Positions 1,085 through 17,346 of a DNA stretch of 21,929 bases are shown piece after piece. Numbering within the stretch: the first letter of the stretch is position 1; the number at the start of each line of letters is the position of its first letter. Made by a program: the position numbers and the translations under genes. Source of the stretch: a virus; IMG/VR virus record IMGVR_UViG_3300013232_000807. The stretch is one strand, 5' to 3'. The notes under the pieces were generated by a model. The model searched no databases, had not been told where the DNA came from, and saw only the letters and a list, made by a program, of their open reading frames with translations.

Positions 1085-1090
1085 CATAAG
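1085..1090 (+). promoter_or_regulatory. CATAAG motif (candidate promoter core) upstream of coiled-coil gene
   Basis: Sequence cgggCATAAGaagg lies 22 nt upstream of the ATG at 1113. One of 8 intergenic occurrences of this hexamer. Confidence 0.4.
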
Positions 1091-1112
1091 AAGGCATCCC
1101 CGGAGGTGAACT

Positions 1113-1772
1113 ATGGGCAAGGGACGGAACGGACGCCATCGGGAGGCACGCATGGCAGTGCGCGCTTCCCTCACCGAGAGCAACGCGGAACTGCAGGCCG
1201 AGCTGCGGACGGCCAACGAGGACCTGGGAGAGCTCCGCGCTCACTACCGCGCGAACCTGCACGAGCTCGAGCGGCTTCGGCGCTTCGAGAGCGACGGCCT
1301 CGACCTCGAGCGCCTGGCCCGCGTGCTCCACGCGGCGCGTGAGCGGATCCAGCAGCGCGAGGACATGCTCATGCAGGTCACGCGGGCCTACGAGAGCGCC
1401 AGCATGCAGCTGACGTGGGCGAACGAGCAGCTGGAGCGCACGACGAACGCGAACGCCGCCCTGCGCCTCGAGGTGCTCGACCTCAAGCAGCTCGCGGAGC
1501 GCCGCCGGCGTGATGCAGAGGCGACTCCTGAGCTGCGACAGCGCATCTCGGCCCTCGAACAGGAGCTCACGCGCGAGAACCAGCGCCGACTGCGGCTGGA
1601 GCTCGAGCTCGACGGGCTGCGCAACGACGTGAAGGAGACACCCAGCATCGAGAAGAAGGACTGGCGCCTGTTGGCGCAGCTCGTGCACCCCGACGTCCAC
1701 GTCGAGGGGCGCAAGGCGCGTGCTGAGGAGGCCATGCTCCTCTTGAACACGAAGCTGCGGCCGCGCGAGTGA
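1113..1772 (+). CDS. coiled-coil protein with C-terminal J-domain-like segment (HPD motif)
   Basis: RBS GGAGGTG precedes the ATG. Long heptad-like Leu/Glu/Arg-rich sequence. The C-terminus reads SIEKKDWRLLAQLVHPDVHVEGRKARAEEAMLLLNTKL, which matches J-domain helices II-III (KKAYRKLAxKYHPD...AEEKFKEIxEAYEVL). The HPD codons are at 1686-1694. Confidence 0.7.
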   Translation: MGKGRNGRHREARMAVRASLTESNAELQAELRTANEDLGELRAHYRANLHELERLRRFESDGLDLERLARVLHAARERIQQREDMLMQVTRAYESASMQLTWANEQLERTTNANAALRLEVLDLKQLAERRRRDAEATPELRQRISALEQELTRENQRRLRLELELDGLRNDVKETPSIEKKDWRLLAQLVHPDVHVEGRKARAEEAMLLLNTKLRPRE

Positions 1773-1778
1773 GAGGAG

Positions 1779-1811
1779 GGCGAGCTCGTGAAGAGCCGCC
1801 GTTCTCTTAGC
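1779..1811 (+). terminator. candidate intrinsic terminator (hairpin + GTTCTCTTAGC tail)
   Basis: Stem GGCG(a)GCTC / GAGCCGCC with loop GTGAA, starting 7 nt after the stop at 1772. It is followed by the T-rich tail ending in CTTAGC. Confidence 0.35.
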
Positions 1812-1827
1812 TTCTACGCCGATTTGC

Positions 1828-1833
1828 CATAAG
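1828..1833 (+). promoter_or_regulatory. CATAAG motif upstream of 1850 gene
   Basis: Sequence gatttgcCATAAGgctcgtgaggtacaccATG lies 16 nt upstream of the ATG. Confidence 0.4.
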
Positions 1834-1849
1834 GCTCGTGAGGTACACC

Positions 1850-2953
1850 ATGAGATACCCCCCACGCAAGCAGCAGCATCCAGAGGTCATGTCGAGCGGC
1901 GTCTTCGGGCCGCCCATCTACGAGGCCATGCGCGAGATCTTCGCCGAGACCGGCCTCTACTCCTCCGGGCAGATCCAGGGCCTGCTCAACGGACTGAGCA
2001 CCGGCGGGCAGCGCTTCGACACGGCCCAGGGGGCGATGTGCTTCGCCATCCTGGCCTGGCAGGACAACGGCAGGGCCGTGTACTTCCTGGAGGAGGGGCT
2101 GGCCGAGACGCTCACGAACACCGAGATGCCGATGGACCTCTTCGACCTGCCGGCCTGGGTGCCGGACAACGGGATGTACGTCGTGGTGCCGCCGCTGTTC
2201 ATGCTCGAGAACCCCGACACGAGCCTCCACCCGGTCGAGGGGTTCTACCTGGTGAAGGACATGATCGCGGTCCCGAAGGGCAAGGACGGACGCCCCGACT
2301 ACCGCACCACGGACCACCTTCTCGACGGGAAGCACACGGTGGTCAGCTCCGACGAGGGCTACGAGATGGTGCAGGGCATCACCTGCGTCGGGGTGGGCAA
2401 GCCCAAGGGCTACACCTGGAACATGCGCGAGATGCGCAACGACGCGCTGGTGGTCTTCCACCTGTGCCCGGGCATCCCGCTCGGGGAGGACACGAAGAAC
2501 GCGTTCGGGGGCATCGCCGAGCTCGAGCGCGTCGTCGTGAACCTGCTCTACGCCATGCAGAACACCACCAGCGTGGTGGCGGAGCGCCGGCAGCCCGAGC
2601 TCGGAGACAAGGCCGCCAAGCGCCGGCCGGCGAAGGCGCAGAAGCTCCTGGACGAGAGTGGGAAGACCCTCGACGCGTACACCGTGCTCAGCCTGAGCCG
2701 CACCGTGCGGAGCGCGCGCCCCTCGGAGGCTCGGGAGGGCACGGAGACGCCCGAGCGCAAGCTCAGGCACCCGAAGTACATCTCGGGGCACTTCCACCGG
2801 TACTGGGTGCGTGACGCGGCCAAGGAACGCGTCCTCGAGACGAAGGACGGGAAGAGCGGGAAGCTCTACCTGGTCGAGTACCTGCTCGCGCCCTACCTCC
2901 AGGGCGCCGACCTCCCCAAGCCACCGACGAAGACCGTCATCGTGAGGGCCTGA
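1850..2953 (+). CDS. hypothetical protein (367 aa)
   Basis: GAGG (1840-1843) lies 6 nt before the ATG at 1850, with an in-frame GTG at 1838 as alternative. A long GC3-rich ORF. The N-terminal GPPIYEAMREIF motif is shared with the 389 gene. Confidence 0.7.
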   Translation: MRYPPRKQQHPEVMSSGVFGPPIYEAMREIFAETGLYSSGQIQGLLNGLSTGGQRFDTAQGAMCFAILAWQDNGRAVYFLEEGLAETLTNTEMPMDLFDLPAWVPDNGMYVVVPPLFMLENPDTSLHPVEGFYLVKDMIAVPKGKDGRPDYRTTDHLLDGKHTVVSSDEGYEMVQGITCVGVGKPKGYTWNMREMRNDALVVFHLCPGIPLGEDTKNAFGGIAELERVVVNLLYAMQNTTSVVAERRQPELGDKAAKRRPAKAQKLLDESGKTLDAYTVLSLSRTVRSARPSEAREGTETPERKLRHPKYISGHFHRYWVRDAAKERVLETKDGKSGKLYLVEYLLAPYLQGADLPKPPTKTVIVRA

Positions 2954-16026: not shown

Positions 16027-16087
16027 CGGTGTGCGCGGTGGGGCCAACAAGCCCTGCCGCGCACACCGCGTGCGCTATTTCTTAGCC
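16027..16087 (+). terminator. strong hairpin terminator followed by TATTTCTTAGCC
   Basis: An 18-bp stem spans 16027-16044 / 16051-16068 (cGGTGTGCGCGGtgggGC ... GCccTGCCGCGCACACCg, two G-U pairs) with loop CAACAA. The T-rich tail gcgcTATTTCTTAGCC begins 7 nt after the MVP stop. Confidence 0.6.
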
Positions 16088-16095
16088 AGAAACGG

Positions 16096-16101
16096 CATAA
16101 G
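16096..16101 (+). promoter_or_regulatory. CATAAG motif upstream of 2H-phosphoesterase-like gene
   Basis: Sequence agaaacggCATAAGtacgttggaggtcaagcacATG lies 19 nt upstream of the ATG. Confidence 0.4.
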
Positions 16102-16120
16102 TACGTTGGAGGTCAAGCAC

Positions 16121-16543
16121 ATGAAGGTCATCTACATCGGCGCGTTCCTCGACGAGGAGTCGAAGGCACGCCTCCTCGCTGCGGTGCCCGCGCAGCACCC
16201 CAACGTGTTCGCGGAGCACATCACCCTGGCGTTCAAGCCCGGCCTGGACAGCCCGCTCTTCCTCAAGCTCGGCGAGACGGTCGAGTACGAGGTGCTCGGG
16301 TACGCGCAGGACGACCGCGGGCAGGCGGTGGTGATCTCCGGACCCGCTGGGATGCTCGGGCAGAACGAGTTCCCGCACATCACCATCTCGTGCGCCGACG
16401 GTACGAAGCCCTTCTACAGCAACGAGCTGCTCTCGAACAACACGCTGACCGGCATCCCTCCGGGTCTCGTGCTGCGCGCCGTCGTGAAGGCAGTCGTCAG
16501 CCGCGCGGGCGGCATCGCGCACGTCGTCTCGCTGGACCCGTGA
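16121..16543 (+). CDS. 2H phosphoesterase superfamily protein (two H-x-T motifs; LigT/cyclic-nucleotide phosphodiesterase-like)
   Basis: RBS GGAGG precedes the ATG. The motifs AEHITLAF and FPHITISC are the paired HxT/Sx signatures of the 2H fold. Confidence 0.6.
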   Translation: MKVIYIGAFLDEESKARLLAAVPAQHPNVFAEHITLAFKPGLDSPLFLKLGETVEYEVLGYAQDDRGQAVVISGPAGMLGQNEFPHITISCADGTKPFYSNELLSNNTLTGIPPGLVLRAVVKAVVSRAGGIAHVVSLDP

Positions 16544-16608
16544 AGGGTGGAGTAGTCCCTCACGGGGCTCTCCGTTAGGGGTGCTCGTACTCACACCCAG
16601 GAGAGGTC

Positions 16609-17334
16609 ATGCCCAAGTACCGCCCCCTCGTCCCCATCCCGGAGTTCGGCAAGGACGCCGTGTGTGCGGACGACGCGCGCGGCCCCTTCCTCGCCTGGAA
16701 GGCAGCGGTGGAGTCGCGGGGCGGGAAGCTCGTCGCCAACTCCCTGACGCGCACCGTCGCGCAGCAGCAGCCGCTGCGTGACCGCTACGTGGCGTGGTTG
16801 AACGCGGGCAAGCCGAGCCCGGCCGTCGCCGCGGCCAACAAGCCCGGACGCTCCAACCACCAGGGCGGTCGCGCGATCGACGTGTCCACCGTGAACGCGT
16901 TCCCTGGGCAGCCGGCGAACAAGCAGGTCGACCTGCTCTGGGAGACGGGCAAGCCCCTCGGCTTCACTCCGATCATCGCCGCGCCCGACGAGACGAAGAG
17001 CGAGCGCTGGCACTTCGACTTCTGGGGCGACTGGGTCGGGGTGCTCAACCACCTCGGCTACGAGACGGCGTGCCTGTGCTCCGCCCTCGACGTCGGGCAG
17101 GCCGGGGAGTGGCAGAGCGACGCGCGCCTCATCCAGGCTCTCCTGCTCCGCGCGGGCTACGACATCGGGGAGCCCGACGGTATCGCTGGGAAGCGCACCC
17201 AGAAGGCGCTGGCCCTGGCCGGCATCGTCCCGCTCGGCAAGACGCTCAGCTCCACCTTCGGGAGCCGTGACGCCGACTGGGATGCTCTGCGCGCACTCCC
17301 GGTGCGCCACACTTGGCAGAAGGTCACTGCGTAG
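16609..17334 (+). CDS. endolysin: peptidase M15 (VanY/L-Ala-D-Glu peptidase-like) with C-terminal peptidoglycan-binding domain
   Basis: RBS GGAGAGG precedes the ATG. Contains SNHQGGRAIDV (H..G.A.D zinc-ligand motif) and ERWHFD (E..H). The C-terminal DARLIQALLLRAGYDIGEPDGIAGKRTQKALALAG is a PG_binding_1-like repeat. Confidence 0.75.
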   Translation: MPKYRPLVPIPEFGKDAVCADDARGPFLAWKAAVESRGGKLVANSLTRTVAQQQPLRDRYVAWLNAGKPSPAVAAANKPGRSNHQGGRAIDVSTVNAFPGQPANKQVDLLWETGKPLGFTPIIAAPDETKSERWHFDFWGDWVGVLNHLGYETACLCSALDVGQAGEWQSDARLIQALLLRAGYDIGEPDGIAGKRTQKALALAGIVPLGKTLSSTFGSRDADWDALRALPVRHTWQKVTA

Positions 17335-17340
17335 GCAGGT

Positions 17341-17346
17341 CATAAG
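17341..17346 (+). promoter_or_regulatory. CATAAG motif upstream of 17374 gene
   Basis: Sequence gcaggtCATAAGcaccgtgcaaccttgataggaggctacATG lies 27 nt upstream of the ATG. Confidence 0.35.

Follow-up and report, generated by a model that had tools for sequence, protein, structure and literature searches.

The late promoters of bacteriophage T4 carry TATAAATA at about -10, which is read by gp55 together with gp33 and the gp45 clamp, and T7-like promoters are conserved over about 19-23 bp, from -17 to +6. In Bacillus, the -10 elements of sigma-E and sigma-K, reportedly described by Helmann and Moran as CATAcanT and CATAnnnTA, are said to be accompanied by a minimal -35 'AC' 17 bp upstream. The housekeeping sigma-70 reads T-12ATAAT-7, in which A-11 and T-7 are the most conserved bases and are flipped out, and the polymerases of jumbo phages recognize very short motifs, which are AT-rich, about 10 nt long and centred near -10 in the early promoters, and which read A-11ACA-N6-T-R+1 in the AR9 late promoter and T-3ATG+1 in the phiKZ late promoter (PMC7598289). 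Here, we analysed the hexamer CATAAG in a complete metagenome contig of 21,929 nt, the IMG/VR virus record IMGVR_UViG_3300013232_000807 (hereafter the window, meaning this whole stretch of DNA), and we propose that GnCATAAG probably forms the core of the -10 region in a class of promoters specific to a single clade of uncultivated large phages. The concept of a clade-specific phage promoter motif is familiar, and what accompanies CATAAG is an unusual terminator-like partner that has no U-tract.

Occurrence and conservation of CATAAG

The window has 67% G+C and comes from an uncultivated clade of large phages. Its gene map, built from a GC3 frame plot and the inspection of start codons and Shine-Dalgarno (SD) sequences, comprises about 37 genes, of which only two small ones, at 11924-12558, are not on the + strand, and leaves 825 nt (3.8%) of intergenic DNA. 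The recognisable genes encode a nucleotidase-like protein, SSB, dCMP deaminase, GIY-YIG and HNH endonucleases, a VanY-type endolysin, the topoisomerase II large subunit and a full-length, 868-residue major vault protein (MVP) homolog. Through protein searches, related contigs of 22-188 kb were recovered, the large ones being 136-188 kb, and their vault proteins and topoisomerases are 49-63% and 56-77% identical to those of the window, respectively. Syntenic loci were compared in ten further lineages (L001, L003, L006, L008, L012, L013, L014, L015, L020 and L021), and all clade counts given below are based on 233,586 nt of non-redundant DNA, with about one third or less of each genome (140-190 kb) sampled.

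By exact search, CATAAG occurs in the window at 1085, 1828, 3365, 4033, 12689, 13358, 16096 and 17341, that is, eight times on the + strand and never on the - strand, in agreement with the original prediction, which had listed the same eight positions and no CTTATG on the + strand; 1.21 copies would be expected on both strands together (standard deviation 1.1, maximum 4; 100 dinucleotide shuffles). All eight copies lie within or abut intergenic DNA, where CATAAG is the top hexamer, above the Shine-Dalgarno words. Chance or AT-rich spacers can be ruled out as an explanation, since CATAAG outranks every intergenic hexamer and its one-mismatch variants are not enriched in the window (20 found, 21 expected), and so can a longer dispersed repeat or duplicated cassette, since no longer repeat family covers the sites and their flanks are unrelated. 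Each copy was also found, as had been claimed, before a gene that comes first, namely in a gap ahead of a + gene not overlapped by its predecessor. The distance from motif end to start codon is 16-49 nt, so that the lower end of the 16-52 nt first given was exact and the upper end was not. The claim that no copy falls inside coding sequence holds for seven of the eight and fails for the copy at 3365, whose TAA (3367-3369) doubles as the stop codon of gene 2953-3369. Three window gaps longer than 15 nt are without the motif (10404-10434, 12988-13005 and 16544-16608).

In the clade DNA, the + (coding) strand carries 49 copies of CATAAG and the - strand one, this single antisense copy lacking the G two bases upstream that marks most sites; a 190-kb subset holds 41 and 1 copies, respectively, versus about 5-10 and 2-7 expected from low-order Markov models. 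The extended forms are oriented without exception, with 45 copies of GNCATAAG and 10 of GNCATAA[A/C] on the + strand and none of either on the - strand, while CATAAT is absent from the clade DNA and TATAAG preceded by the G was found twice, both times in intergenic DNA. Accordingly, the first base of the hexamer is C in 49 of 51 sites and T in two, the A in second position is invariant, and in last position G is found 45 times and A or C 10 times, with no T at all. A start codon follows 20-76 nt downstream of almost all clade copies, and called genes contain just two of the 49 + copies, each in an HNH endonuclease gene (L003 17457 and L021 12815). At about eight further sites in the relatives, the stop codon of the upstream gene is the TAA of the motif, as at window position 3365.

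At divergent junctions, read-through cannot reach the first + gene and a new initiation site is obligatory. Of 15 such junctions, 11 have exact CATAAG, and two more have a near-variant (GaCATAAC or GtCATAAA). When the orthologous divergent gaps of four lineages were compared, the conserved blocks were GGCATAAG, the SD and the start codon (ATG) only. At the vault-gene site, CATAAG is found in three lineages (the window, L001 and L003). The lineages that keep the motif have proteins merely 49-77% identical to those of the window. Farther out, the outgroup viral contig L010, with a 37%-identical vault protein, has one CATAAG copy and no strand bias, and myxophage Mx1 (169.6 kb, encoding a putative sigma), searched in full, has 10 copies on the + and 15 on the - strand; Mx1 was ruled out as a motif-bearing relative, being unrelated and having the motif unenriched.

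Flanking signals and the promoter reading

For the flank analysis, 36 sites were aligned on the motif, the C of CATAAG was set as 0, and each column was compared with the background composition. This identified A at -19 (23/36, P=3e-8), G at -2 (33/36), G at +10 (23/36), T at +11 (18/36) and a purine at +12 (33/36), the remaining flank columns being at background, so that the information is limited to about 8 bp plus three isolated positions. In the window alone, A-19 is present in six of the eight sites, G-2 in seven, and T+11 and the purine at +12 in six each. The sites are effectively independent in sequence, because at least 60% flank identity is shared by just 3 of 780 site pairs. A flank preference of the form s-CATAAG-r, as first suggested, was not borne out, the real signals being the G two bases upstream and the T-purine 5-6 bases downstream. 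The statement that there is no fixed -35-like partner was nearly right, in that no conserved TTGACA-like hexamer exists at the CATAAG sites, and it missed the single A that is enriched exactly 19 nt upstream in both the window and the aligned set. This A often lies inside or beyond the hairpin and TTAGC elements described below.

One explanation places the signal in RNA: CAUAAG could be a site processed by an endoribonuclease of the host or the phage, or the site of a translational regulator in the 5' leader, that marks mature mRNA starts, and phage precedents for RNA processing are the RegB cleavage of T4 at GGAG and the RNase III sites of T7. The motif is indeed strand-specific and situated in leaders upstream of the Shine-Dalgarno sequence, and where it overlaps a stop codon in an uninterrupted operon, as at window 3365 and the about eight sites in relatives, intercistronic processing is plausible. 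However, the motif is found at 13 of 15 divergent junctions, which have no upstream same-strand transcript unless an unseen promoter is assumed; it typically stands just past terminator-like hairpins (five of the eight window copies are 7-29 nt downstream of a hairpin followed by TTAGC); its A-19 and G-2 extend the footprint to about 32 bp, as is usual where a polymerase recognizes DNA; and neither a conserved RNA structure nor an Rfam family was found. We regard an RNA-level role as highly improbable. The fixed spacing across this footprint, the co-orientation with genes, the place behind terminator-like structures and the divergent junctions argue instead for a promoter, and a six-base RNA site would hardly account for them. 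Beyond these, the promoter core put forward in the original prediction gains support from the conservation of position, strand and sequence over ten lineages whose flanks have diverged, from the promoter-like geometry, and from the lack of enrichment in the L010 contig and in Mx1.

With CATAAG placed at -12 to -7, the G would correspond to position -14 of extended -10 promoters, the A to -31 and the T-purine to -1/+1. The start would then be the conserved purine that follows the hexamer by 7 nt, and the promoter would span about -31 to +1.

Several points weigh against this reading. We infer the register of -12 to -7, and even the action of the motif at the DNA level, from sequence alone. A start at +12 would leave several 5' untranslated regions of just 10-16 nt, which would begin at the Shine-Dalgarno sequence, and two leaders of L006 fold into a hairpin from +7, which would fit a start nearer the motif. 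Motif-free gaps that should need a promoter exist in the window (16544-16608), in L012 (5455-5554) and in L021 (16942-17062). At the vault-gene site, the hexamer reads CAGAAG in L006 and CAAAAG in L008, and the neighbouring AT.GTGC downstream and TTAGCC upstream are kept in all five lineages. Finally, the search for a sigma or RNA polymerase (RNAP) gene that had been proposed along with the motif detected no sigma factor, gp55-like protein or phage RNAP in about 234 kb of sampled clade DNA, which represents partial genomes.

This family scan comprised 115 proteins from the window and its relatives, with Pfam tables (for RNAP also PHROG) for further loci. The single Sigma70_r3 match, to a 38-residue stretch, residues 158-195 of L006:12791-13414, was rejected for scoring 23.9 bits, below the cutoff of 25.3; the stretch sits in a relative-specific extension of a phosphoesterase-like protein and is absent from the window ortholog. 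Six unannotated proteins of the window had no match in sequence searches of the PDB, and literature searches for this consensus, or for CATAAG as a promoter, returned nothing relevant.

Comparison with described promoters and the probable reader

The extended -10 promoters of sigma-70 (T-15G-14 n T-12ATAAT-7) resemble the CATAAG sites in the A-T-A-A core, the G two bases upstream of the hexamer (36 of 39 sites in the clade count), the pyrimidine-purine 6-7 nt downstream at the would-be start, and the weak or absent -35. A purine at +12 in 36 of 39 sites and T at +11 in 20 of 39 would suit the start geometry of the sigma family, usually a purine after a pyrimidine 6-8 nt past the -10. The CATAAG sites differ, however, in having C first, never T last and no T at -15; thus CATAAG does not have the housekeeping -10 hexamer of sigma-70, and a consensus scan for sigma-70-type promoters returned 0 in 20 kb. 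The host primary holoenzyme is therefore an unlikely reader, because C stands first and T never last, at the two positions for which the housekeeping sigma requires T-12 and, even more, T-7, and a dedicated specificity factor is suggested by the same two bases. The host core RNAP would then be redirected by a phage-encoded or alternative sigma-like factor, a phage-encoded polymerase being less likely, and the motif predicts that a factor of unusual -10 specificity (C first, non-T last) is either encoded or recruited by the phages.

The sigma-E and sigma-K boxes imply that sigma-70-family factors can specify a CATA-type box. As at the CATAAG sites, their -10 opens with CATA and is accompanied by a single conserved A 18 nt upstream of the C. 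In contrast to CATAAG, these boxes end in the canonical T, and they are read by sigmas of Firmicutes hosts, with no sign of such a host or factor here.

It could also be argued that the motif is not itself a -10 but an operator-like site, bound by a phage activator or repressor and overlapping degenerate host-type promoters, in the manner of the T4 MotA box or the mycobacteriophage stoperators. The recurrence of one short, unvarying word in many promoter regions of a single phage clade is in keeping with this, and at the vault-gene site two lineages differ in position 3, as if regulation had been lost and the promoter kept. Yet the sites have no host-type -10 or -35, as the sigma-70 scan indicates, and the only intergenic TGNTANNNT match lies on the other strand; moreover, the motif itself is at the -10 position relative to the T-purine, and is asymmetric and strictly oriented with transcription. 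We give an operator only the slightest chance.

With the T4 late promoters, which the original prediction had taken as the paradigm, the CATAAG sites share a short, A/T-rich, -10-only box containing xATAA, the absence of a -35, and many-fold over-representation in a strict orientation, and T4 is also a large lytic phage with rIIA/rIIB and topoisomerase II genes, as here. But the core here has six to eight bases, with C first and G sixth, and is not TATAAATA; only xATAAxxx is common to the two, and positions 7-8 after the hexamer are unconserved. CATAAG precedes DNA-metabolism and other non-structural genes, not late virion or lysis genes, and homologs of gp55, gp33 and gp45 (the sliding clamp) were not detected in the 115 proteins and the Pfam tables of the sampled loci. 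With genes of early or middle type served, an endolysin gene without the motif and no gp55-like sigma in the DNA sampled, the T4 late analogy found no support.

The motif could alternatively be the promoter of a phage-encoded RNAP, either multisubunit of the phiKZ/AR9 type or single-subunit, with a start at or just past the motif. The promoters of phiKZ and AR9 are likewise very short and, in the case of early operons, were placed bioinformatically upstream, with centres near -10, and the AR9 late layout of a short box, a spacer of N5/6 and T-purine resembles CATAAG-N5-T-R. The clade genomes are large (contigs of 136-188 kb), the genes served are of early type (the rIIA/rIIB neighbourhood and nucleotide metabolism), the U-tract-free hairpins with TTAGC could be polymerase-specific terminators, and the two L006 leaders folding from +7 would suit a start nearer the motif. 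Unlike the phiKZ and AR9 systems, however, the clade has a different promoter sequence, genomes below 200 kb with 61-69% G+C, and no split beta/beta' in the sampled loci; neither beta/beta'-like nor T7-like genes were found in the fetched loci, which are a minority of each genome. T7-like single-subunit promoters are conserved over about 19-23 bp, versus about 8 bp here with unrelated flanks, and the G-14, the A-31 and the purine 7 nt past the hexamer suit sigma-70-family geometry. A phage polymerase is unlikely, though a rival to be taken seriously, and we favour the -10 core of a promoter read by a redirected host RNAP.

Transcription units, their ends and their genes

The terminator-like partner of CATAAG was found at seven places in the window, with all seven hairpins at dG <= -22.5 kcal/mol, where background 46-nt windows have a mean of -14.0 and 3.4% reach <= -22. 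The window has six copies of TTAGC, every one of them intergenic and on the + strand. Like intrinsic terminators, these elements consist of a strong GC-rich hairpin that directly follows the last stop codon of a unit, also at a convergent junction; unlike intrinsic terminators, they show a conserved (Y)TTAGC(C) behind the hairpin in place of a U-tract, and a classical T-tract scan was passed by just one of the seven (16059-16075), the others being followed by two or three T within YTTAGC. Hairpin and TTAGC would close the transcription units, each of which would end in such a structure, and CATAAG would open them. The two are nevertheless separable, because the hairpin at 11931-11968 and the one before the endolysin gene stand without CATAAG. 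Together they amount to a sequence-only map of transcription units for a phage clade known from metagenomes.

On the + strand of the window, the first hairpin, ending at TTAGC, is at 1036..1072 (dG -25.6 kcal/mol), and the promoter-like element GgCATAAG with its predicted start region (1083..1097; exact motif, G-2, A-19), which has hairpin and TTAGC 16 nt before it, precedes gene 1113-1772. A second hairpin ending at TTAGC (1772..1811; dG -25.5) stands directly after this gene, and the element GcCATAAG-gctc-GTG (1826..1840; G-2, A-19, T+11, G+12) is located before gene 1850-2953. The element GtCATAAG at 3363..3377 is embedded in the end of gene 2953-3369 and precedes gene 3388-3720, and after gene 3713-3988 there is a third hairpin with TTAGC (3993..4030; dG -25.5), 2 nt past which GtCATAAG-cggc-GTA (4031..4045) is placed before gene 4073-4417. 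The convergent junction after gene 10435-11922 holds a 14-bp GC hairpin with TTAGC (11931..11968; dG -29.4) with no CATAAG behind it. GgCATAAG at 12687..12701 occupies the divergent gap between the - strand gene 12151-12558 and the + strand gene 12721-12987, and, after gene 13006-13290, a GC hairpin with TTAGC (13290..13333; dG -29.1) is followed by TaCATAAG (13356..13370), the one element in which the -2 G is missing, ahead of gene 13413-16019 for the major-vault-protein homolog. After the vault-protein gene come a hairpin with TATTTCTTAGC (16059..16086) and GgCATAAG-tacg-TTG (16094..16108), the latter before the 2H-phosphoesterase-like gene 16121-16543. A hairpin with the variant GTTAGG (16549..16579; dG -22.5) lies before endolysin gene 16609-17334, in a gap without CATAAG, and 7 nt past the endolysin stop GtCATAAG-cacc-GTG (17339..17353) heads the operon 17374-17592 / 17589-18095 / topoisomerase II 18095-20002.

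The genes behind the motif, in the window and its relatives, are the SSB region, dCMP deaminase, the nucleotidase, the topoisomerase II operon, the vault protein homolog, an exonuclease/phosphatase (Exo_endo_phos), the 2H-phosphoesterase-like gene, a polymerase-beta-thumb protein and the rIIA/rIIB neighbourhood. The endolysin gene has no motif, and the blocks of large unannotated genes in L014 and L015 are motif-free. The genes served are thus mainly those of DNA metabolism and other non-structural functions, and are more likely of an early or middle class. A more far-reaching proposal, which we consider possible but doubtful, is that the clade has a self-contained orthogonal transcription, in which a phage factor or polymerase reads GnCATAA(G/A/C) and a cognate hairpin-TTAGC stop ends units that express the vault protein among others. 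GnCATAAG could possibly also serve as a compact orthogonal promoter for high-GC hosts.

The leftward genes form a contrast class, and CATAAG is never carried by them. In the window they code for one protein of 135 residues, which has a transmembrane segment at its C terminus, and one of 75 residues, and the sequence facing them (genes 12558-12151 and 12151-11924) is a canonical extended -10-like TGTTAGAAT on the - strand at 12634..12642, a candidate host-type promoter. It is one of two TGNTANNNT matches in the 21.9-kb window and the only intergenic one; its orthologs are TGTTACCAT (L001), TGTTATCAT (L003) and GGTAGAAT (L008), with TGnTAnnnT kept in three of the four orthologous gaps. The canonical look of this box suggests that the host primary sigma is of ordinary specificity, and the few leftward genes would use an ordinary TGnTAnnnT promoter, which, judged by its sequence, is a possible host-type class distinct from CATAAG. 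The motif would in this way distinguish phage-specific genes as a class from those few that have promoters of host type.

In the endolysin gap, GTACTCAC was noted 14-15 nt upstream of the endolysin start and past the hairpin, at 16587-16594 in the window and at 13803-13810 in L003. As a second motif class it was ruled out, being conserved at the orthologous L003 site alone and unrepeated elsewhere; for the lysis gene it may act as a regulatory or alternative promoter element peculiar to this site.

The vault gene at 13413-16019 (+) encodes, on a phage-like contig, a homolog of the eukaryotic-type major vault protein with MVP shoulder and SPFH domains, and the motif would mark how this phage-borne homolog is expressed. 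The protein is about 40% identical to MVPs of Myxococcota metagenome-assembled genomes (Kofleriaceae), and its searches against phages returned only three uncultured huge-phage records, at 36-38%. This affinity, together with that of the topoisomerase, points to Myxococcota as possible hosts. A 2023 preprint (bioRxiv 10.1101/2023.11.10.566534) reports MVPs in viruses for the first time, in gut phages, and the MVP of this high-GC clade from soil and groundwater looks like a separate case.

Homing endonuclease genes (GIY-YIG, HNH and HNH_3) are dense, at 10068-10403 and 20301-20846 in the window and throughout the relatives, and their positions vary by lineage, for example beside the topoisomerase II gene. 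The relatives' loci also hold rIIA/rIIB, ThyX and dNMP kinase, and many homing endonucleases. Both CATAAG copies inside HNH genes, L003 17457 and L021 12815, keep the -2 G, and the next genes downstream are topoisomerase II at 151 nt in L003 and an unannotated 305-residue gene at 280 nt in L021; these copies may be functional internal promoters that restore expression downstream of an endonuclease insertion.

A 300-nt gap in L015 (12338-12640) is unlike the cassettes of hairpin, TTAGC and CATAAG: it holds a classical terminator of hairpin and T-tract (GGCCGCCTTCGGGCGGCTTTTTTG) together with an AT-rich stretch, precedes a block of large unannotated genes, and may be the boundary to a different transcription class.

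Gene 10435-11922 of the window encodes a conserved 495-residue protein with a weak Mrr_cat nuclease match and no match among phages, and within it, at 10949-11146, there are three tandem repeats of 81 nt (27 residues) with 72-75% identity. The last 46 bases of the window (21884-21929) are a Nextera transposase adapter (CTGTCTCTTATACACATCTGACGCTGCCGACGA plus index and flow-cell sequence). No close cultured relative was found, a megablast against phages matching the adapter alone, since deposited phage records contain the same artefact and match no other part of the window. The window has no tRNA or known RNA family (Rfam), and tRNA arrays are present in two relatives, with 32 tRNA genes arrayed within 5.5 kb in L013 (15126-20631, - strand) and six in L014 (13302-14337, - strand), over which gene callers had placed spurious open reading frames.

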